A stretch of DNA of 64,000 bases. Origin: an uncultured Bacteroidaceae bacterium (lineage in GTDB: Bacteria > Bacteroidota > Bacteroidia > Bacteroidales > SM23-62). Under the pieces are notes generated by a model. It was not told the DNA's origin. It made no database searches and worked only from the letters and a program-made list of their open reading frames with translations. Position numbers and translations under genes: made by a program. The stretch spans positions 841,741 to 905,740 of the forward strand of contig CAVZPP010000002.1 in NCBI GenBank assembly GCA_963777115.1. Reading direction: 5' to 3'. Positions 49,014 through 64,000 of this stretch are shown one piece after another. Numbering within the stretch: the first letter of the stretch is position 1; the number at the start of each line of letters is the position of its first letter.

Positions 49014-51824
49014 ATGAAACCCAAAAAAAAATTATTAATCGCCCTGATCATCCTTTTTTCAGTCAGTCTCTATTCGCAAAACACTCAAATTGTATACCTC
49101 TCCGGGAAAGACGCGGCTAAAACGGTCGATTGGGATTTTTTCTGCACCGACGGACAGAATAGTGGCAACTGGACTAAAATACCCGTGCCCTCCAACTGGG
49201 AGTTGCAGGGTTTTGGAACCTACAATTATGGCCACGATTGGGGCAACAAAGAGATCAAACTTGGAAAGGAACATGGTTTGTATAAATACGAATTCAGTGT
49301 ACCTTCCGATTGGAAAGGCAAAACAGTAAATATAGTATTCGACGGTTCGATGACCGACACCAAGAGTAAAAATTAATGGTAAGTCAGCCGGAGAAATGCA
49401 CCAGGGTGCTTTTTACCGTTTTAAATACGATATTTCAAAATTATTGAAATACGGAAGATCAAATGTTTTGGAAGTAGATGTTGATAAACATTCATCAAAC
49501 GAATCGGTTGTACGTGCCGAGCGCCAGGCTGATTTCTGGATTTTTGGAGGAATTTTTCGACCCGTATTTTTGGAAGTACTTCCAGAAATTCACATGAACC
49601 GCACTGCTATTGATGCCAAAGCTGATGGTTCTTTCAACTCATTCATCGTGCTGAATAAATCAAAAGCCAATTATTCTGTTTCAGTTGAGTTGTTTGATTT
49701 AGAAGGAAATAAAATTGGTGAATCAATCCAGTCAAAAATTGAAAAAGGAACCACGGAAACCTTTGTTTCAGGGAAATTTAATCATGTAAAATCGTGGAAT
49801 CCCGAGTGGCCTACTTTATACAACATGAAAATTACCCTGAAAAAAGGGAACGATATTTTGCATGAAGTAACGGAACGAATTGGTTTCCGAACTGTTGAAT
49901 TACGTGCACACGATGGTTTTTATATAAATGGTGAAAAAGTTGTTTTCAAAGGTGTAAATCGTCACTCGTTTTTGGCCCGAAACCGGTCGCTGTTTAAGCG
50001 AAGAAAATCACTTAACCGATATTCGTTTGATGAAAGGAGATGAACATGAACGCGGTTCGTTGTTCGCATTATGTTCCGGATAAACGGTTTCTTGAATTAT
50101 GCGACTCGCTGGGACTTTTTGTATTGGATGAAGTTACCGGCTGGCAACAGGGATATGACACAATTGTTGGTCCAAAACTAATAAAAGAAACCGTTTTGAA
50201 AGATGAAAATCATCCGTGTGTGGTAATCTGGGATCATGGAAATGAAGGTGGCTGGGATTTTGCCAACGAAAAAGAATTTCATCGACTGGGACATTCAAAA
50301 ACGACCAGTTATTTATCCATGGTTACTTCGGAATGGTGTTGAAACCCACCACTATCCCGAATTTAATTATGGCATTGGACGAAATGTTTAATGGCAACGA
50401 CCCGTTTATGGCGACCGAATTAATGCATGGTTTATATGATGGCGGACATGGAGCCGGACTGGAGGAATTCTGGAGAAGTTATGAAGCAACGCCACTTTTG
50501 GCAGGAGGATTTCTTTGGGTTTTGGCCGATGAGGCTGTATTGCGTAACAGATATGGAAGGAACTGTTTTTGATGCTGATGGAAATAATGCTCCCGATGGA
50601 ATTCTTGGACCTCATCGGGAGAAAGAGGGGAGTTTCTATACTGTTAAAGAAATTTGGTCGCCAGTACAAATAGAACCGGTAACCATAAACAAACAATGGA
50701 ATGGTAGATTATTCCTGAAAAATAAATTCATTTATACCAATTTAATCGAATGTAGTTTTAGCTGGAAAGCCTTTAGAACTGAAATTGGTACTACAAGAGA
50801 AATAGTAACCGGCTCTGGAAAAGTTACAAGCCCGAATACACTACCCGGAGAAACAGAAATGGTAAATATTGACTGTGGTAAAGCGCTTCAAAATGCAGAT
50901 ATCTTTCAGTTTACAGCCCTCGATCACGAAGGAAAAGAACTTTATACCTGGAGTTGGCCGGTAATTCAACCTAAAGAAAAAGCAGTTGAAATAATTTCAA
51001 CAAATAATAATATTTCAGAAATTGATGTGATTGAAAATGGAAATCTTATAACTGCAACAGTGAATAATCTGAAATTTTCATTCAACAAGGAAAATGGTGA
51101 AATTCAGTCGATAGAAAACAGTAATGGAAATATCTCATTTTCAGGTGGCCCTGTTCCTGTGGGAGTTGAATCGGAAGTTACCGAAACCAAATGGAAAATG
51201 GATGAACCTGGTAATTTTGTGTTTGAGATCACTTATTCCAGTTATCCAGGCAATGCAGTTTGGACTTTGACTAAAAATGGATTGCTTGGACTGGAAGCTG
51301 GTGCTATCAGAAGAGGATTAAAGGACATCGATTATATTGGAATTTCCTTTAAGTATCCCGAAGATAAATGCAAATCGGTAAGCTGGATGGGGCGTGGACC
51401 ATACCGGGTGTGGAAAAACCGGATCAAAGGAAGCAATATTGGTGTTTGGGAAAAGGAGTATAACAATACAATTACCGGCGAAAATTTTAATGAATTAATA
51501 TATCCTGAGTTTAAAGGATATCACGGTAATTTGTATTGGGCCAAATTCGAAACTACCGAATCACCAATTACCATTATCTCAGCTACTCCAAATTTATACT
51601 TTCAGCTTTTCACACCTGCAAAACCAAAAGATATCAGAGGAGATGTCGCACCTTCCTTTCCTGACGGCGACATATCGTTCTTATATGACATACCTGCAAT
51701 TGGAACAAAATTTAAAAAAGCAGAGCAATTAGGTCCTCAAAGCCAGAAAGGTATATATAAAGGGCATAATGGAGATGTGGGATATCCTATAAAACTATGG
51801 TTTGATTTTTCAGTAGAAAATTAG
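49014..51824 (+). CDS. GH2 beta-galactosidase-like enzyme (about 934 aa) interrupted by six +1 frameshifts, probably sequencing errors; pseudogene not excluded
   Basis: Fragments join into IPVPSNWE, DFWIFGGIFRPV, KGVNRHSFWPE, MNAVRCSHY, WDHGNE, TELMHG and GGFLW. Confidence 0.85.
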
Positions 51825-51970
51825 TTTTAATACAATGAATCATCTCTTAGCTTTATTTATTTGAGAGTCATTTTATAGAGAACGATATTGAATACTATAC
51901 AAAAGAATTCTAAGTTGACCTTTTCCTACCTGATCCATTGAATTAATTGAATAAACGATTATGCTCGGTA

Positions 51971-51994
51971 AAGACGTGGTACCAGCTACACCAC
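51971..51994. repeat. 24-bp direct repeat, copy 1 (aagacgtggtaccagctacaccac)
   Basis: Identical to 57181-57204; imperfect similarity continues for about 30 bp to the right. Confidence 0.9.
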
Positions 51995-52090
51995 TTATTT
52001 CTTTGCGGATTTTAATCGATCTTTTCATCAAAAACTTCATTTTTCAGCAATAATTACCAATTTTAACCTTCATTTTAAAACTATGATTCA

Positions 52091-53470
52091 ATGAAATTCT
52101 GTTGTAGGTCAGCATTCAGCTTTCTCATATTATTAAATATACAATTGCAGCTTGGCCTCGCACAGCCTATTATTGATTCAGCTAAATACGGATTGCCGGT
52201 ATTGCCCGAGGTGTCAGGATTTGGACTTGACTCAAAAGGAGGTCAGGGAGGTAAAATTATTGTAGTTAGTAATCTTAATTCAGAAGGTAAAGGCTCACTT
52301 GCTGAGGCAATAAATACTTCTGGCCCAAGAATTATCGTTTTTGAAGTTGCCGGATATATCGATCTTGAAGAACAATCACTTGAGTTGACAAATCCTTTTA
52401 TCACCATTGTCGGACAGACTGCTCCGTCTCCAGGTGTAACACTAGTCAATGGAGGCTTGAGCATTAAAACACATGATGTAATAATTCAACATATTAAAGT
52501 TCGACCTGGAGATAGAGGACGGGCAAAAAAGAGTGGTTGGGAAGCTGATGGTTTAGCAAGTAATAAGGGTGCTTATAATGTTATTGTAGACCACTGTTCT
52601 TTTTCATGGGCAACCGATGAAAACCTAAGTGTTTCGGGACCCAGATTTGATGGAGAAAATGTAGTAGAGTGGCGAAATAATACATCACATAAGATAACTT
52701 ATAGCCATTGCATTATTGCCCAGGGATTAAGTAATTCAAGTCATTCAAAAGGGGAACACTCTAAGGGAACGCTTGTTCATGATAATGCAACAGATATTCT
52801 GATCTACGGAAATTTGTATTCCAGCAATGTTGAACGGAGTCCACTGATAAAAGGCGGTGTACAATGTGCGATAGTAAACAATTATATTTATAATCCGGGA
52901 AACGCTGCCATTCACTACAACCTTTCGCCAGGCGAGTGGATGGGCCATGAATGGGTGGAAGGTAAAATGAGCGTGGAAGGAAATTATATTGAATTTGGAA
53001 AAAACTCTTCAGAAAATATTGCAGCGGCGAATCTTCGCGGGCCAATAGAAATTTACTGGAAAGATAATTTTGTTTCTGAAAGAAAAATCAACGGAGAAGC
53101 AGACGAGTCCTTAAGGTATAGGAATACATTTATCGAAGAAAAAACGGCAACCATCTCTGAATTGCTAAAAGGGGCTAATACTAAAACGGATGGACTTGAA
53201 AAAGTGGTTGAATCACCACCTATTTGGCCATATGGATTGGTTCCAATTCCTGTAGAAAAAGTTAAAGATTACGTTTTACAAAATGCAGGAGCCTTTCCTT
53301 GGGACCGGGATAAAATTGACCAGAAGATAATAGATGATATAATATCAGGCAAAGGCCAGATAATTGACAGTGAAACTCAGGTTGGAGGATATCCGGAAAT
53401 TGAATTGGTTTTCCGGAAATTCAGGTTGGAGGATTGGTCTATGACTACCTTAAGGCGAAAAGTTGATTAA
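52091..53470 (+). CDS. Polysaccharide lyase family 1 (pectate lyase-like)
   Basis: GFG...GG.GG, GPRIIVFEVAG, GQTAPSPG, VDHCSFSWATDE and R.P motifs; signal peptide. Confidence 0.88.
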   Translation: MKFCCRSAFSFLILLNIQLQLGLAQPIIDSAKYGLPVLPEVSGFGLDSKGGQGGKIIVVSNLNSEGKGSLAEAINTSGPRIIVFEVAGYIDLEEQSLELTNPFITIVGQTAPSPGVTLVNGGLSIKTHDVIIQHIKVRPGDRGRAKKSGWEADGLASNKGAYNVIVDHCSFSWATDENLSVSGPRFDGENVVEWRNNTSHKITYSHCIIAQGLSNSSHSKGEHSKGTLVHDNATDILIYGNLYSSNVERSPLIKGGVQCAIVNNYIYNPGNAAIHYNLSPGEWMGHEWVEGKMSVEGNYIEFGKNSSENIAAANLRGPIEIYWKDNFVSERKINGEADESLRYRNTFIEEKTATISELLKGANTKTDGLEKVVESPPIWPYGLVPIPVEKVKDYVLQNAGAFPWDRDKIDQKIIDDIISGKGQIIDSETQVGGYPEIELVFRKFRLEDWSMTTLRRKVD

Positions 53471-53640
53471 GAAAGAGAGCCTTTATACCTATGTAACAAG
53501 ACGTTCACCTAGGAACTGATCCTTTCAATCTTAATAAGCCTCCTGATCATCAGCACATACTGAAAAAGCCTCGCTGATAATTGTTTTACAGATACTTACG
53601 ATACCTAGACGATAAAAGAATGTGTCTTTGTTCAGAATTT

Positions 53641-53793
53641 CTATTTACCCTTTTTTTCTTCAGGAGGGCCATGTAACCGGATTTCACGGTTCTGTAACCA
53701 TTCTTCCTTCGCCTGTTCACTGTCCCTGTCTTCATCTATCAAGATCCATGTCAATGGAGCCTTAAGGACGAGAACTTTTTTTTGTGGTTTCAT
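53641..53793 (-). CDS. 50-aa microprotein, copy 1 (MKPQKKVLVLKAPLTWILIDEDRDSEQAKEEWLQNRE...)
   Basis: Intact paralogue of identical length at 56923-57075. Confidence 0.7.
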   Translation of the reverse strand: MKPQKKVLVLKAPLTWILIDEDRDSEQAKEEWLQNREIRLHGPPEEKKGK

Positions 53794-53865
53794 GCTTATG
53801 TTGTTTTTTCTGTGAGCAAATTCCAAAACCGTCAACACTCCTGTCAACAGCATGCGAAAAAGGTC

Positions 53866-54024
53866 TTGCAGATCATTAACCTGTTGGCTTCTGGCTGGAC
53901 TGAGGAACAATTACTTGAAAACTATCCAAGATTAGATAAGTCAAAAATCCAAGCCATATTTTTATACATTAAGGACTGTATGCGAGATGGTTTAATGTTT
54001 AATGAACCTCTCAAGTCTGCATAA
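53866..54024 (+). pseudogene. 5'-truncated DUF433 antitoxin
   Basis: IINLLASGWTEEQLLENYPRL...IQA matches the DUF433 C-terminal half; the N-terminal GKP..KGTRI part is missing; TAATG coupling to the next gene. Confidence 0.75.
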
Positions 54025-54362
54025 TGAAACTTCTCGCAAACGAGAACTTTCCGCTTAAAAGCATTGAGGTCATTTCCTCGGCCGGCTTCGACATCATTGG
54101 AATAGGCATTGATAATTACGGTATCCGTGATGATGAAGTTATTGCCTTAGCTGAAAAGTAAAAAAGAACGATTATAACTTTTGATAAAGATTACGGAGAA
54201 TTAATATTCAAAAGAGGATTACAACCAGCAGGAGGTGTAATTTATCTAAGATGGGATGACTTTACTCCTAGTGAACCAGGAGAATATCTCATAGAACTCT
54301 TCAAATCGAAGGATATTCATCTTCAAAATCATGAACAATACCCTCAAATTCAGTTTCTGTAA
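54024..54362 (+). pseudogene. DUF5615 PIN-like toxin with an in-frame stop (absent from the ORF track)
   Basis: MKLLANENFP...DDEVIALAEK*KRTIITFDKDYGELIF...GVIYLR; TAA at 54159-54161. Confidence 0.8.
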
Positions 54363-55008
54363 AGTCCTCTTCATTCACCCAATAGTCTGAAGTTATAATT
54401 GAGATGGTTCCATCATCTGATTGTTCCATTTCCCAGATTATATTCTCTGCCTCAGTGAATTCAACCTTCCCCTCCAATTGCTCGGGAAATAGCCTCCGGA
54501 CCAGATTTCTTTCTCTCAATCCAATACTCATGGCCTTGAGGACATTATCCTTGCCAATATCCACTCTGGTATTTTGCTGAAATTGTATTCCCATGGTCAC
54601 TTTACTAGCTTTGGCATTTGGGAAACTACTACTGAATGCCTTATAGAGCAGCTGATTTATGTTAAACAATGAATAGTGTAATGCGATATCAGAATATTCT
54701 TCAGCAACATTATCATCCCTCATTTCAGTAGCGAGATTCTTTATCTGCCCCTTTGTCAATATGCCAGCCAGTTTGTAAGTCAAAATAATCTCAGCAGCTT
54801 CATGGGATTCAAATTCACCTATCGCCATTAAAAATAATTCTAGCAATTCCTCCTGAGCAGCTTCCTCAGCTTCAGGGAAGCCAAGTCGATCCAATAATTC
54901 AATATAATCTTCCTTTGACCATGCCCCTTCAATTTCATGAATGGTTTCGATATCCGTGATCTTAACTTTACACCTCATTACGGTAATGTTTATTGTTTTT
55001 GTCAACAT
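54301..55008 (-). CDS. Hypothetical acidic protein
   Basis: 235-aa clean ORF; no family recognised. Confidence 0.7.
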   Translation of the reverse strand: MLTKTINITVMRCKVKITDIETIHEIEGAWSKEDYIELLDRLGFPEAEEAAQEELLELFLMAIGEFESHEAAEIILTYKLAGILTKGQIKNLATEMRDDNVAEEYSDIALHYSLFNINQLLYKAFSSSFPNAKASKVTMGIQFQQNTRVDIGKDNVLKAMSIGLRERNLVRRLFPEQLEGKVEFTEAENIIWEMEQSDDGTISIITSDYWVNEEDFTETEFEGIVHDFEDEYPSI

Positions 55009-55208
55009 ACTCTGTTTTTTTGACTTTAGTATTGAATTCGGTCACGACTCCATGGTTTGTATAATCCAATTCCTACGAGCTAGAATTGATCTATTTTCAA
55101 AACATTAAATATTTTTAAGGGAGATTACCTCATCCCTTTACCGAATTAATCACCGCTAATAAAGGTGTGAGACCGCAATCTAAAGAATGGCAGAACACAT
55201 CGTAATGA

Positions 55209-55394
55209 GGCTGCAGGGAATGGATAGCGGACCTCACATTTCGGCTAGGGAAAGGGTCTTGCAGGGATCTGGCGGGAATAGCTATTCAACTATTCAGGTT
55301 TATGGGTATTGCATCAAGGTTCGTTAGTGGTAGCGTCTGTGGGGAAGCTACCTCAAGGCTTACCACCAGACTATCTATTGAAATTGTAGGATAG
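55209..55394 (+). pseudogene. Transglutaminase-like domain relic (absent from the ORF track)
   Basis: Frame 3 reads LTFRLGKGSCRDLAGIAIQLFRFMGIASRFVSG, matching the GsCrDxA...RxxGxxaRfVsG core; bounded by stops with no start codon upstream of the core. Confidence 0.72.
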
Positions 55395-55471
55395 AAAAGT
55401 TAGAAGCAGGAGTTTCTATCCTGATGAAATGTAGCCGTCTGCCGAAGTTCACATAAAAAGTTGATGAGCCT

Positions 55472-56101
55472 CTATTTAGGTATTAATCCCAGATTGCGTA
55501 GTTCTTTAAATAGCTTCTTTGCAAAACTACCCAGGCTTGAATTCATTGCCTCTTGCTCGAATGCATAGGAGCGTCCTGACCAAATCAATCTGCCTTCTTC
55601 AAGTTCGAATAAGTTTACTTCCAGGAAATACTTGATATCCTGAACTTCATAACCGCCTGTGTGTACGAGTGCATAGGTTCTCGTGTAGTAATTCCCGAAG
55701 CGATTGTAATAAATCAGTGGTTCATAAGTACTGGAAGGCGGTATATATCGCTTGGCGCTGGTTCCGATAAGAGTTACAGTAATTAATCCGTCAAAGCCCT
55801 TACTCCTCAGATTCGCTCTGGTCTGCTCAAAATCAACAATTGGTTTTCCCAATTCAGGAGGAAACATTAGTATGCCCTCCACTGCTAACAGACCTTTTTT
55901 ATGCGCAGCCTTTGCCAGTTCTCCTTCAATCTTATCCCGTGTTAATAGATCTTCATTGAGTCCCAATACAATGATTTTCTTGAATTGAGTGGCAGGTATA
56001 TCTTCTGTACTCCATGTTCTCAGTTGAGCCTGCAAGACCAGAGTCGCCAGTGGTGTAAAACTTAACAGGATCATTGCACTAAATAATCGGATTATTCTCA
56101 T
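55472..56101 (-). CDS. Secreted DUF4136-like protein
   Basis: Signal peptide; KKIIVLG...R...E, Tyr-rich loop and LEVNLF....LIWSG.S. Confidence 0.65.
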   Translation of the reverse strand: MRIIRLFSAMILLSFTPLATLVLQAQLRTWSTEDIPATQFKKIIVLGLNEDLLTRDKIEGELAKAAHKKGLLAVEGILMFPPELGKPIVDFEQTRANLRSKGFDGLITVTLIGTSAKRYIPPSSTYEPLIYYNRFGNYYTRTYALVHTGGYEVQDIKYFLEVNLFELEEGRLIWSGRSYAFEQEAMNSSLGSFAKKLFKELRNLGLIPK

Positions 56102-56312
56102 GCTTGTATTATTTATTTTGCGTAATCTCTTAAAGAAACGGAAATATAAGTAGTATTCCTATACTTGCATATTCTCCGAACCCTAAACTCACAAATTATG
56201 AAACTGATTACAATAATGAACTTCCTAATACAAGTCCGGTAGTCTATACTGCATTAGAATTTTAAGGACGAAAATTTGATTAGATTTACAATAAATTCAA
56301 AAATATACAATT

Positions 56313-56786
56313 ATGGGAACTACATTAATCGAACCGCATATTCTCAAGGCAGAAGCACATAAGGTTGCTATCAAAAATCTGGAGGAAAACCTTGATGAGG
56401 TAAATCAGCTCATCGCAAATAAACGCGATGATGAAGATGGGATCTCTCAAGGTGAGATTGAGCCCGAAACCTTGTCTCACAACACTGAAGATCAAGATAT
56501 CGTCCTGGCAATGCAACAAAAAGCTATTTCTATAAAGGCCCAGATCAAACTTATCGATGGGTACAAAAGTGCTAAACCAACTGCAATTGTCGATCCAGGT
56601 TCACTGGTATTCGTTCAGGATCAAGTATTTTATGTGTCAACTAGTGTTGAAAGCTTCAACCATAAAGGCTATAAAATCACATGCATTTCTATACAAGCAC
56701 CAATTTACACAGTGATGAAAGGATTGACAACTGGAAATACTTTTGACTATAAGGGAAAAAGTTACACGATCAAAAAGATTGCATAA
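56313..56786 (+). CDS. GreA/GreB-like protein
   Basis: N-terminal coiled coil; C-terminal V..GSLV, IS..APIY..M.G...G..F pattern. Confidence 0.6.
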   Translation: MGTTLIEPHILKAEAHKVAIKNLEENLDEVNQLIANKRDDEDGISQGEIEPETLSHNTEDQDIVLAMQQKAISIKAQIKLIDGYKSAKPTAIVDPGSLVFVQDQVFYVSTSVESFNHKGYKITCISIQAPIYTVMKGLTTGNTFDYKGKSYTIKKIA

Positions 56787-56827
56787 CAGGTTAAGCGGCT
56801 GTTTACTAACGACCTACTGACTCTCAT

Positions 56828-56905
56828 AACCGTCAACCCTCCCATCAACGCATACAAAAAAGGCCTCACAGATTATTGATTTACAAGTCCTTGCGGTGTT
56901 AAGAC
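56828..56905 (-). repeat. Hairpin/att-like motif (related copies at about 53537-53610, 53827-53880 and 57108-57185)
   Basis: Minus strand reads GTCTTAACACCGC, a stem-loop, a T run, then GTTGATGG..GTTGACGG tandem boxes. Confidence 0.65.
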
Positions 56906-56922
56906 TCAATCTGATTGTGGAG

Positions 56923-57075
56923 CTATTTTTTATCTTTTACTTCCTTGGGCGGATTTAGCCGGAGTTCACGGTTCTGTAACCATTTTTCCTTTGCTTCTTC
57001 ACTGTCCCTGTCTTCATTTATCAAGATATATGTCAATGGGGCCTTAAGGACGAGAACTCTTTTTTGTGGTTTCAT
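56923..57075 (-). CDS. 50-aa microprotein, copy 2 (MKPQKRVLVLKAPLTYILINEDRDSEEAKEKWLQNRE...), absent from the ORF track
   Basis: 34 of the first 40 aa identical to copy 1; same length. Confidence 0.7.
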   Translation of the reverse strand: MKPQKRVLVLKAPLTYILINEDRDSEEAKEKWLQNRELRLNPPKEVKDKK

Positions 57076-57178
57076 ACTTCTGCTGTTTTAATAGTGAGCT
57101 AGATCCAAAACGTCACCAGGATCATCAATGTCCATAAGAAAAACCCCGTAAAGCGCTAGCCTACAGGGGTTTGGGGTA

Positions 57179-57316
57179 TTAAGACGTGGTACCAGCTACA
57201 CCACCAATATTTTTACGGATTTTTGTCGATTTTATCGCATAGCGATAATAATTCGGCGTCAGAGTCCCGATTTCTTTACTTATGACTGGCACATAAATTT
57301 GGGAGGGGTCCAACAT
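57179..57316 (-). CDS. Putative 45-aa short ORF ending KSTKIRKNIGGVAGTTS* across the direct repeat
   Basis: Open frame; related copies near 51971-52021 and 48818-48836 include third-position synonymous differences. Confidence 0.4.
   Translation of the reverse strand: MLDPSQIYVPVISKEIGTLTPNYYRYAIKSTKIRKNIGGVAGTTS
57181..57204. repeat. 24-bp direct repeat, copy 2
   Basis: Identical to 51971-51994. Confidence 0.9.
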
Positions 57317-57392
57317 CTTAGAATTAGCTAAAATGTCTAATCTTACACTGTCCTATTTTCAGGTAAGGCTACAGTGCAACTTGTTCACCAAT

Positions 57393-58325
57393 TCAATCCT
57401 TTTTCTCCAGGTATTTAATTAAATATTCCTTTAACTTTTCATTTCTTTTAGGATCGTTATTAAATTCAGCAAGTAGATCAACATCATTTGCGATGATTTC
57501 TTGTATTTTGTTATTGTTTAATTTGATAACTTCTCCAGTATTGGCAACCATTATTTGTCTAACAAGTTCGTATAGAGTAGTCGGAACATTTCCAATAAAT
57601 ATCGTTGTTGACCGTCTGTCTTCAAAATAGTAATACGGTCCAAGGCATTCAATTTGAACAAATTCTGTTCTTGGGCCAAGGCTCGGCGTTTTTACATTTA
57701 TATATGCATTATTACCATCACAAAATCCGAATACCTTTCCAATAGAATTACCTTCATTTCTATCAGTATTAAGTCTGTAATATGGAATCATACCAGAAGA
57801 CCTTAAATCTCCATATTTGCGCATTTTTTTGGAGATCTGATAATTGAATTCTATAGAAGGTTTGTTCTGATAGAATTCCTCAAAGTTTTTATATATTCCA
57901 GCTTTCAAACCTGTATAGTTCTGAAGATATATGGCTAAAAGAATACATGCTTCTTTCTTTGTGCCAAAATCGAGTGAAATGTTATATTTACCAGTTTCAG
58001 TAGCCGTGAACAGGTAAGTAGAATAGTTTTCTTTCTGATTGAATTCAGTTACATAATCCTTTATTGTATTGCCACTGATCCCTTCTAATTTCAGGGAGGG
58101 AATCGAAGAATTTGGATTCAATAAGTATATGGCATATCTGCTATCTTTTTCAAGTATCATTGATGCATTGGCACCGGATTCATTATTTAATTCCTGGTGT
58201 TTTAGATATTCCCCTTTGCAATATTTATCCAAAATCGCCTTGTGGTTTATTCCACATTGAGCAGAAACCATTGCTTGAAGAACAAGCATTATGATTAATG
58301 AGGTTATGTGTCTTTTCATCTTCAA
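57393..58325 (-). CDS. Secreted two-domain hypothetical protein
   Basis: Signal peptide (VSAQ); second domain starts GIYKNFEEFYQNKPS; follows fecR after 4 bp. Confidence 0.75.
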   Translation of the reverse strand: MKMKRHITSLIIMLVLQAMVSAQCGINHKAILDKYCKGEYLKHQELNNESGANASMILEKDSRYAIYLLNPNSSIPSLKLEGISGNTIKDYVTEFNQKENYSTYLFTATETGKYNISLDFGTKKEACILLAIYLQNYTGLKAGIYKNFEEFYQNKPSIEFNYQISKKMRKYGDLRSSGMIPYYRLNTDRNEGNSIGKVFGFCDGNNAYINVKTPSLGPRTEFVQIECLGPYYYFEDRRSTTIFIGNVPTTLYELVRQIMVANTGEVIKLNNNKIQEIIANDVDLLAEFNNDPKRNEKLKEYLIKYLEKKD

Positions 58326-62470: not shown

Positions 62471-63481
62471 ATGATCTTGATATTCAGAATTCTAAGTCAC
62501 AGATATGCATATCACATTTACTTCTGGAGTTTATTCTTCATACTGTTTGTGTTTTTGGGATCAGATAGATTTCAAAATCTGAATTATGGTTTACGTATAA
62601 GTATCGCATTTATCATTCCCTGGATAGTTGCATCGTACATTCACTTTTATTTTCATACTCGATTTTTTGCCAGGCGAATGTATTTTATTTACATCCTCTT
62701 GACTATTTCTATAGTAATCATATTTGGATACCTATCAGAATTATCGGTTGACCTTATCCTTTCTGATAGTCAATTTGATAGATCGGGCTACATCGATGTT
62801 GCAATAATTCTTGTATTTACTTCAGGATTGAGATATTTTAGAAGGGGAGTAAATCAGCAATTCCGGATGCAGGAAATGGAATCGAAACAATTAAAAGCAG
62901 AATTAAGTCTCCTGAAAAGCCAGATAAATCCACATTTTTTATTTAATACCTTAAATAATCTTTATTCAATCGCTAAAAAATATGGTGATAGTGAAGCGGC
63001 AGAAGGATTGTTAAAACTATCCCAATTAATGAGATATATGATTTATGATAGCAATGCAGAATTGGTCAGTTTGGAAAAGGAGATTGAATACATTGAGGAT
63101 TATGTTGAATTGCAGAGACTTAGGGTTAATCAGCACGAATTCCCAAAAATCCATCTCGAGACTACTGGTGATTTTCGATCGAATTTTATAAGTCCAATGA
63201 TGCTAATTCCGTTTATTGAAAATGCATTTAAACATGGATCTGGCGGCAAGGACAGGAACTTAATTGACATCCAGATAAGACTTGAGAAGAAAGTCCTCAA
63301 GCTGAAGGTGATGAATCCCATGGGGGACAACCATAACACGACGGGATCAAATAAAATAGGTTCGGGAATTGGTCTGGAGAATGTTAGTCGAAGACTGAAT
63401 TTGATATATCCAGACAGGCATAGTCTTTCTATTAAGTCTGACAACGATTGTTTCCGTATCGAATTAATAATTGATTTATAG
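62471..63481 (+). CDS. LytS/YehU-type sensor histidine kinase
   Basis: Four TM helices; LKSQINPHFLFNTLN, ENAFKHG and GIGLENV..RL motifs. Confidence 0.94.
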   Translation: MILIFRILSHRYAYHIYFWSLFFILFVFLGSDRFQNLNYGLRISIAFIIPWIVASYIHFYFHTRFFARRMYFIYILLTISIVIIFGYLSELSVDLILSDSQFDRSGYIDVAIILVFTSGLRYFRRGVNQQFRMQEMESKQLKAELSLLKSQINPHFLFNTLNNLYSIAKKYGDSEAAEGLLKLSQLMRYMIYDSNAELVSLEKEIEYIEDYVELQRLRVNQHEFPKIHLETTGDFRSNFISPMMLIPFIENAFKHGSGGKDRNLIDIQIRLEKKVLKLKVMNPMGDNHNTTGSNKIGSGIGLENVSRRLNLIYPDRHSLSIKSDNDCFRIELIIDL

Positions 63482-63489
63482 TATAGGTC

Positions 63490-64000
63490 ATGAACTGCAT
63501 CGCCATAGATGATGAGCCTAGAGCTCTTGATGTAATAGAAGAATATTCATCAAAAATATCATTATTGACCTTAGAAAAGTCATTTTCCAATTCACTTAAA
63601 GCAGTTGAATATCTGCAGAAGAATAAGATTGATCTGATTTTTCTAGATATTGAAATGCCAAATCTATCTGGGATGGATTTATTGAAAACTTTAGAATACC
63701 AACCAATGATAATTTTCACAACGGCATATTCGGAATTTGCCGTTGACAGTTTTGATTTTAATGTTATAGATTATTTATTAAAACCAATTGATTTCAATCG
63801 ATTCCTAAAATCCGTTAACAAAGCGTTCAGACAATACAGTTTAGTAAATTCAGACATAAAGGAAACCATACAGGATACAGATAACACAAAAGATGAGTCA
63901 TTTATTTTGGTTAAAAGTGGAACAAAAATCCATAGACTCATTAAAAAGGATATCCTGTACATCCAAAGTTACGGCAACTATGTTTACTTTTTTACAAACA
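63490..64000 (+). CDS. LytTR family response regulator (runs off the window)
   Basis: MNCIAIDDEP, DLIFLDIEMP, IIFTTAY, DYLLKP and the start of the LytTR domain. Confidence 0.92.
   Translation, partial: MNCIAIDDEPRALDVIEEYSSKISLLTLEKSFSNSLKAVEYLQKNKIDLIFLDIEMPNLSGMDLLKTLEYQPMIIFTTAYSEFAVDSFDFNVIDYLLKPIDFNRFLKSVNKAFRQYSLVNSDIKETIQDTDNTKDESFILVKSGTKIHRLIKKDILYIQSYGNYVYFFTN

Follow-up and report, generated by a model that had tools for sequence, protein, structure and literature searches.

Analysis of a 64,000-nucleotide (nt) stretch of an uncultured Bacteroidaceae genome, hereafter the window, identified repeated modules in which a gene for a 50-amino-acid (aa) microprotein is bracketed by two copies of a hairpin-and-box motif. 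Comparison with the tRNA-Phe locus shows the motif to correspond to the last 11-25 nt of tRNA-Phe(GAA) plus a trailer of about 90 nt, that is, to the attachment-site region of that locus. The modules are probably, though by no means certainly, relics of small integrative elements that encoded the microprotein and a serine recombinase and inserted at tRNA-Phe-type sites, where they came to stand in tandem with further integrase-less islands, whose cargo includes toxin-antitoxin genes. Three lines of evidence carry this reading: the match of the motif to tRNA-Phe, a left/right switch in sequence identity at a 7-nt core, GTCTTRA, and remnants of a large serine recombinase gene next to the microprotein gene.

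A tRNA-Phe trailer motif and a conserved microprotein

In the motif, read on the minus strand throughout, the core GTCTTRA is followed by a hairpin, a T-run, and two GTTGAYG boxes, the latter ending in a promoter-like TTTG element. A preliminary description of the window had reported four related motifs flanking two microprotein copies; all four are present and homologous, and a hidden Markov model (HMM) built from them recovered eight extra genomic copies (E 6e-18 to 3.5e-6, with the next match at E 0.0032). This genome contains 12 motif copies and five microprotein genes: the window has two of these, a third lies 476 nt beyond its end, and contig C5 carries the other two. Each of the five genes has a motif on both sides, while two motif copies are solitary. 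Homologous modules elsewhere, which the same description had called for, were found in relatives and in metagenomes, where 17 of 20 loci have a motif no more than 400 nt from the microprotein. In the window, motifs C (56828-56905) and D (57108-57185) consist of GTCTTAAYACC, the hairpin, the T-run, and two GTTGAYG-type boxes at 12-bp spacing. Motif A (53537-53610), GTCTAGGTATC, has diverged and its second box is degenerate, and motif B (53827-53880) lacks its left half.

The relation of the motif to tRNA-Phe is evident from one of the solo copies, which starts inside the only tRNA-Phe(GAA) gene of the genome and extends about 90 nt beyond it, and from the upstream-type copies, which open with the final 11-25 bases of the tRNA. 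A metagenome locus preserves the order tRNA-Phe, motif, microprotein. Of 25 family genomes, 22 matched in a DNA search with tRNA-Phe plus trailer as the query. The motif stands behind tRNA-Phe in 11 of 14 loci from seven genera, including genomes without the microprotein, and two of the three misses are contig ends. Extra, tRNA-less copies occur in at least a dozen of the family genomes, and their partial tRNA 3' ends match each host's own tRNA-Phe variant. With a covariance model of 30 copies, strong matches were confined to the family among 151 genomes of the order (7 genomes matched, 5 of them weakly). The GTTGAYG boxes are also present in native tRNA-Phe trailers of genomes without any module, and a second box pair lies about 150 nt upstream of the pseudo-tRNA ends. 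The Bacteroidetes promoter consensus is TTTG ... TTTG, and the boxes would fit either such a promoter or protein-binding sites. A lone GTTGAYG box pair was also seen just 3' of the MacB gene of this genome (C5:173234-173252), and a weak covariance-model match (E 3.5e-5) lies 13 kb beyond it (C5:162707-162804).

To characterize the hairpin, a 15-pair structure was evaluated over the 30 copies against 500 shuffles and slid controls. Its cells are paired in 89% of cases, compared with 81.2 +/- 1.0% in shuffled alignments (0/500 reach the observed value) and 27-55% in the slid controls, and eight pairs are altered on both sides, which 3/500 shuffles reach. The covariation check proposed earlier thus came out in favour of an RNA hairpin. 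The G-U wobble pairing previously remarked on the minus strand holds family-wide: about 76 of 420 pair cells are G.U or U.G on the minus, tRNA-sense strand only and become A.C mismatches on the opposite strand. The T-run columns are invariant across the aligned copies, and a terminator scan picked up copy D. Among sequencing runs, none of RNA was listed as containing the region, and the matching DNA runs have at most 0.07 of the sequence words in common with it. The hairpin and T-run have the ordinary shape of an intrinsic terminator and would act at the RNA level as the terminator of tRNA-Phe. The 'IHF-like' string singled out in the preliminary description forms the upper stem and apex of this hairpin and fits the IHF consensus only in part.

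The alternative proposal of an RNA attenuator series, in which the hairpins would be regulated terminators governing small-protein expression, draws on the coding-strand hairpin and T-run that precede each microprotein gene. The same hairpin, however, follows the real tRNA-Phe in the 11 of 14 loci mentioned above and is also present 3' of the microprotein, and a promoter-like element separates the terminator from the gene. Rfam gave no match at gathering score in the window, the only match with E<=1 in 51800-57500 being a chance miRNA match (E 0.71). No conserved alternative pairing of the hairpin was seen, and on this ground the attenuator reading was rejected; we consider it extremely improbable. 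In metagenome locus L027, a group II intron with reverse transcriptase and maturase (419-1975) sits exactly after the motif T-run, the position directly behind a terminator T-run that is typical of class IIC introns according to excerpts of one report (PMC1702495). A further group II intron lies beside a module in L016 (1 to about 515), and its 3' end, ..CTACTCGAT, is common to the L027 intron.

The microprotein is a real, conserved, coding protein: pN/pS is 0.35 over 18 unique intact copies, in comparison to 1.29 and 1.22 in the other frames, and the copies show synonymous AGG/CGA swaps. The family is tight, with 33 clusters located mostly on contigs shorter than 3 kb, and is found in three of the 25 family genomes; longer forms differ by an extended start only. 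A profile search of 1.84 billion representatives returned 18 proteins, all unnamed and on short contigs, including distant relatives of 57-116 aa that have in common VxVL.xPxT[YFW]IxID.D.D..EA+..WL. A sample of 400 genomes of the phylum yielded no other match to the profile. Neither the microprotein nor two distant relatives had a relative in viral contigs, and plasmids gave no microprotein match. The microprotein and 32 relatives had no match in Pfam, NCBIfam, PHROG or PDB sequences, and the microprotein matched no Xis or helix-turn-helix (HTH) family. Atlas look-alikes scored at most 0.81 and serve as a lead only. AlphaFold2, run with a 32-row alignment, gave one helix (residues 21-40) and no confident fold (pLDDT 63.6, pTM 0.30). 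A ribbon-helix-helix assignment, which came from reading the sequence alone, found no support.

The switch at GTCTTRA and the lost serine recombinase

Each motif copy was compared with the site at the real tRNA-Phe, separately to the left and to the right of GTCTTRA. The upstream copies match the left side completely (D 7/7, 2c_up 11/11, 5b_up 11/11, 5a_up 9/9) and the right side at 10-13/16 (11/16 in D), whereas the downstream copies match the left side poorly (C 1/7, 2c_dn 4/12, 5b_dn 4/12) and the right side at 14-15/16 (15/16 in C). In addition, two orphan ends (window 51971-52026 and C2:1072779) retain the pseudo-tRNA end and diverge right after GTCTT. The left/right switch and the orphan breaks together form the signature of a site-specific insertion with a crossover within GTCTTRA. 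Direct repeats bearing the tRNA 3' end and matching the target in the attL/attR manner, as found here, characterize integrative elements at tRNA 3' ends. The distance from tRNA-Phe to FtsX is 165 nt in the related genome G003, while in this genome an array of about 12 kb precedes MacB/FtsX, a difference that would fit an insertion polymorphism.

The repeats could also be explained without site-specific recombination, by segmental duplication and unequal homologous recombination around a microprotein gene that would be an ordinary chromosomal gene. The repeats, 65-85% alike, are of sufficient length to undergo homologous exchange, the solo motif copies could be deletion products, and the genes around the modules are ordinary metabolic and regulatory ones. 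Against such a process stand the sharp switch at GTCTTRA and the orphan ends that break exactly after GTCTT. The patchy spread of the microprotein among the family genomes, the unlike contexts in each genome, the adjacent recombinase remnant, and the location of most copies on short contigs, typical of repeats, also argue against it, and we regard duplication as an unlikely explanation.

In several loci, an open reading frame (ORF) begins 10 bases 3' of the microprotein stop (MEK.RFAPIIRVSTESQ... / MEK.RFAPIIRVSTESQKEKGESLNVQ). The ORF remnants beside the microprotein carry an N-terminal RVSTESQ motif, and their full-length relatives, of 539-598 aa, combine a Resolvase domain (PF00239) with a recombinase zinc ribbon (PF13408), which identifies them as large serine recombinases. 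Searches with tblastn found only remnants, covering the first 33-38 and/or the last 50-90 residues, behind two of the five microprotein copies of this genome and at 7 of the 19 microprotein places elsewhere; both recombinase ends are united in one 127-aa ORF. The recombinase gene terminates within the downstream motif, where the TAA of GTCTTAA serves as its stop codon. At every microprotein copy seen, the recombinase gene is internally deleted or absent, and in this genome it has been lost at all five. Window copy 1 retains the last 30 nt or so of the gene. Window copy 2 has no remnant, the gene having apparently been lost by deletion between two CACAATC repeats. The single PF00239 gene of this genome is unrelated. 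No tyrosine recombinase (PF00589) lies within 25 kb of any module of this genome, and P0035, one of the full-length recombinases, had no relative in viral contigs and no plasmid match.

On this basis, the original element would have carried the microprotein gene with, 10 nt behind it, a gene for a large serine recombinase, and would have inserted at GTCTTRA. Had the element brought its own copy of the terminator plus boxes, the integrated form would be bracketed by two homologous motifs. The attL-like end would then join the left half of the target to the right half of the element, and the attR-like end would join the recombinase 3' end to the right half of the target. Decay has since left all five copies in this genome without the recombinase gene. 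The relics now stand head to tail with recombinase-less islands ending in a pseudo-tRNA-Phe 3' end, an arrangement that is directly visible and that may have arisen by successive insertion. Since the microprotein gene heads a two-gene operon with the recombinase, the product would most likely be a directionality factor or a regulator of the recombinase operon.

A further reading starts from the five intact microprotein copies under purifying selection. The microprotein could be a directionality or immunity factor that the host kept after losing every cognate serine recombinase; it would favour excision or block integration and so guard tRNA-Phe-type sites, and together with the trailer it would form a standing platform for cassette exchange. 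Such a platform would be like that of the staphylococcal cassette chromosome (SCC) or an integron, yet built on a tRNA trailer in this Bacteroidales family. We regard this as speculative and doubtful.

The preliminary description had also proposed nested att regions with integrase arm sites. The outline is borne out by the tRNA-Phe direct repeats, their attL/attR-like switch, and the recombinase remnant beside the microprotein; the type of enzyme is not, as the trace left is that of a large serine recombinase rather than an arm-binding tyrosine integrase. A role for tyrosine integrases was nevertheless weighed, in which the islands would be the cis-mobilizable remains of tRNA-targeting elements, the GTTGAYG pairs arm sites, the microprotein excisionase-like, and the serine recombinase mere cargo. 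Partial tRNA 3' ends that follow the host tRNA occur at every island border, and the placement of box pairs at about 150 nt upstream of the core and at about 65 nt downstream resembles the geometry of lambda attP. An integrase with an Arm-DNA-binding domain lies 1.9 kb from the microprotein in one metagenome locus (L024); it was rejected as the responsible recombinase because at none of the four loci checked do its close homologues have a motif within 1.5 kb. Against this reading, contigs with the tRNA-Phe gene or the trailer motif carry no PF00589 in this genome, G018, G019, G011, or G007, and neither does the motif contig C224 of G012, yet an integrase on contig C15 of G012 is 6.5 kb from its microprotein. 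Moreover, tRNA-Phe trailers that no island follows contain the boxes too, and the microprotein has no match to any Xis or HTH family. We judge tyrosine-integrase islands to be a rather unlikely alternative.

Several observations weigh against relics of a serine-recombinase element. No intact element, with the microprotein, a full recombinase, and both ends, was seen, nor was any circular junction, excision product, or clean empty/filled pair found. The parent gene is pieced together from remnants, its best full-length relative being about 40% identical at the C-terminus, and recombinase homologues of 49-54% identity occur in two genomes with neither the microprotein nor a tRNA nearby. The two hairpin alleles are not strictly bound to the upstream or downstream place and are reversed in L026. 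Large serine recombinases use short attP and attB sites of unlike sequence around a central crossover dinucleotide, while here the switch point is confined to 7 nt and the element and target sides are homologous over about 90 nt, which is atypical for such an enzyme. A common trailer of this length exceeds the needs of a serine recombinase site, island borders marked by partial tRNA 3' ends are seen more typically with tyrosine integrases, and the placement of box pairs about 150 nt upstream of the pseudo-tRNA ends has a geometry suiting arm sites. For the window array, no pair of related genomes with both flanks matching was found. Homologous recombination between the repeats could account for part of the array structure. 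Comparison of L062 and L023 revealed a common left flank and motif followed by unlike right flanks, which is not a clean empty/filled pair, and synteny with G012 breaks off where a glycoside hydrolase family 2 (GH2) gene ends (window 51808), so that it yields no empty site.

Stacked islands and their cargo

The C5 array (within C5:170001-190000) consists of about 12 kb of stacked islands with transposase-like HTH fragments and without a recombinase. It starts with tRNA-Phe, a motif, and a 6-kb island (PRiA4_ORF3, Usp, HAD, HTH), continues with a pseudo-tRNA end, a motif, the microprotein, a motif, and HEPN/NTase genes, and ends with a second such module, a ParE pair, a further pseudo-tRNA end, and MacB/FtsX. 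The window array, of the same design, begins at 51971 and extends about 0.8 kb beyond the window. It opens on the minus strand with the orphan island end (51971-52026), located by regex and by BLAST against the genome, which comprises about 45 nt of conserved flank and a pseudo-tRNA-Phe 3' end (..GTGGTGTAGCTGGTACCACGTCTT) and shares 84-95% identity with window 57181-57236 and with three stretches of contig C5.

The first window module also lies on the minus strand. Motif A, the diverged and attR-like trailer copy 3' of microprotein copy 1, spans 53520-53624 according to alignments and an HMM match (nhmmer E 8.9e-19; the E-values of motifs A-D come from copies that seeded the model). It is adjoined by what appear to be the final 30 nt or so of the deleted recombinase gene (53611-53640, ..ENSE.KH..), which abut the stop of the microprotein gene; they were recognized by comparison with the C5 and L011 copies, and the tblastn recombinase remnants in the C5 copies span the same stretch. 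Microprotein copy 1 (50 aa) occupies 53641-53793 (E 3.0e-20, with the selection analysis in agreement). Motif B (53815-53898, nhmmer E 1.7e-13) is shown by alignment and Pfam to be cut on its left at the hairpin apex and joined to a DUF433 fragment. On the plus strand, toxin-antitoxin remnants at 53782-54161 comprise DUF433 without its N-terminus (PF04255, 2.7e-8, profile positions 21-55 only, the first 20 or so being gone where motif B abuts) and a DUF5615 fragment that ends in a stop after 45 residues (PF18480, 4.5e-6, profile positions 1-45 of 110).

Between motifs C and B, beside these remnants cut by the motif B hairpin apex, lie three ORFs without a known family, of 235 aa (minus), 209 aa (minus), and 157 aa (plus), which together with 460 nt of non-coding DNA make up the cargo at 54301-56786. 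The non-coding part (55009-55471) has no ORF of at least 60 aa and looked structured by eye, but a structured RNA was rejected for 55120-55460: the fold z-scores are only -1.1 on the plus strand and -1.6 on the minus strand, and Rfam gave no match. The second module, again on the minus strand, begins with motif C (56815-56919, nhmmer E 5.8e-23, hairpin 56856-56892), the attR-like trailer copy 3' of microprotein copy 2. The latter (56923-57075, 50 aa) was assigned by its ORF, homology, and the selection analysis, and the microprotein gene repeat extends over 189 nt at 81% identity (53641-53829 and 56923-57111). Motif D (57095-57197, nhmmer E 4.7e-19), located 5' of copy 2 and attL-like, combines a pseudo-tRNA-Phe 3' end (57186-57197) with a trailer copy, in which the terminator scan placed a hairpin at 57144-57168. 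The pseudo-tRNA end is preceded by a conserved flank, S1 (57198-57258, minus strand), which BLAST against the genome and alignment identify as the right end of the neighbouring island, itself extending from 57.3 kb to past the window end. A coding role for S1 was rejected by eye because the stop codons differ among copies.

Toxin-antitoxin genes are also located just before the pseudo-tRNA end in the loci L013, L024, and L069. This alternation of constant units with short variable cassettes, many of them toxin-antitoxin pairs, in this genome and in the three loci is reminiscent of an integron-like capture platform, in which the trailer hairpin would serve as an attC-type site and the cassettes (HEPN/NTase, ParE, DUF433/DUF5615, DUF4160/DUF2442) would be caught by a recombinase acting in trans. 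The break of three truncated motif copies at the hairpin apex would suit such a site. No integron-type integrase is present near the modules, however, and the cassette genes are not co-oriented. The G.U pattern of the hairpin fits a transcribed RNA terminator, and inspection by eye, with no attC model run, revealed neither attC R/L box symmetry nor outer inverted-repeat pairing, the boxes being direct repeats. We consider a capture platform of this kind quite improbable.

Other features were observed around the modules. The island between the second and third modules encodes a LytS-type histidine kinase and a LytTR response regulator (window 62471-63999; L008:230-943), and about 160 nt separate the end of the LytTR gene from the downstream motif of the third module. 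At the solo motif L009:9698-9915 (C2:1070698-1070915), about 120 nt beyond the boxes are common to the tRNA-Phe locus; they form the 3' end of a PRiA4_ORF3-like gene at the tRNA-Phe locus and the 3' end of a sulfatase ORF at L009, which suggests that the end of the sulfatase gene may have been replaced by island DNA. Upstream of the orphan end, a GH2 gene on the plus strand (49396-51824) is broken into four overlapping ORFs. Its counterpart in G012 is one open frame of 946 aa, 83-86% identical, which points to frameshifts (a pseudogene) or assembly errors. A second broken copy is found on contig C4.

Comparison with known systems

Copies of the tRNA-Phe trailer provide landmarks for the borders of acquired DNA in this bacterial family and reveal recombinase-less islands that island-finding tools would miss. 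A serine-recombinase element with an insertion core as short as GTCTTRA could yield a new site-specific integrase together with its partner, and the functions of the conserved, unnamed 50-aa family and of the conserved box pair are open to simple tests.

The motif hairpin resembles other intrinsic tRNA terminators in its GC-rich stem and T-run directly after the tRNA and in its compensatory changes, but its apex (GATCAATGATC) and the boxes that follow are conserved across seven genera, beyond what a terminator needs. Directionality factors of serine integrases, e.g., TP901-1 Orf7 and phiRv1 Xis, are small proteins beside a large serine recombinase. The microprotein is in several loci encoded next to remnants of the gene for such an enzyme; no sequence or fold similarity to these factors was found, and, unlike them, it outlasts its recombinase.

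SCC composite islands are formed by Ccr serine recombinases at the 3' end of a conserved gene (rlmH), with short direct repeats, tandem stacks, and ccr-less pseudo-SCC. The modules are similar to SCC in that putative serine-recombinase cassettes lie at the 3' end of a conserved gene, with direct repeats, stacking, and some members without a recombinase. They differ in phylum, in recombinase lineage, in the target (the tRNA-Phe trailer rather than rlmH), and in the 50-aa gene upstream of the recombinase, and no resistance cargo was seen.

Integron attC arrays and clusters of attC sites lacking integron-integrases (CALINs) likewise alternate hairpin repeats with short cassettes, often toxin-antitoxin pairs. 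In the modules, in contrast, there is no integron integrase and no attC symmetry by eye, and the repeat consists of a tRNA trailer and a protein-coding gene. Class IIC introns are described in excerpts of two reports as inserting both at attC sites and at terminators (PMC7923331, PMC1702495).

The arrangement agrees with that described for cis-mobilizable elements (CIMEs), which, according to excerpts of one report, keep attL and attR, have lost their recombination genes, and undergo tandem accretion behind the 3' end of a target gene (PMC5704250). In the modules of this genome, both flanking motifs are present, the recombinase is deleted in five of five, and PF00589 is absent within 25 kb. 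The modules thus share with CIMEs related to ICESt1/ICESt3 of Streptococcus the loss of recombination genes, the retention of attL/attR, and the tandem stacking. They differ from these in that the recombinase traced here is a large serine enzyme instead of a tyrosine integrase, that the repeat is a whole tRNA trailer of about 90 nt, and that they are known from sequence. The kind of scar, a recombinase-less relic at a tRNA site, is already known, and the microprotein family that it carries is unnamed.

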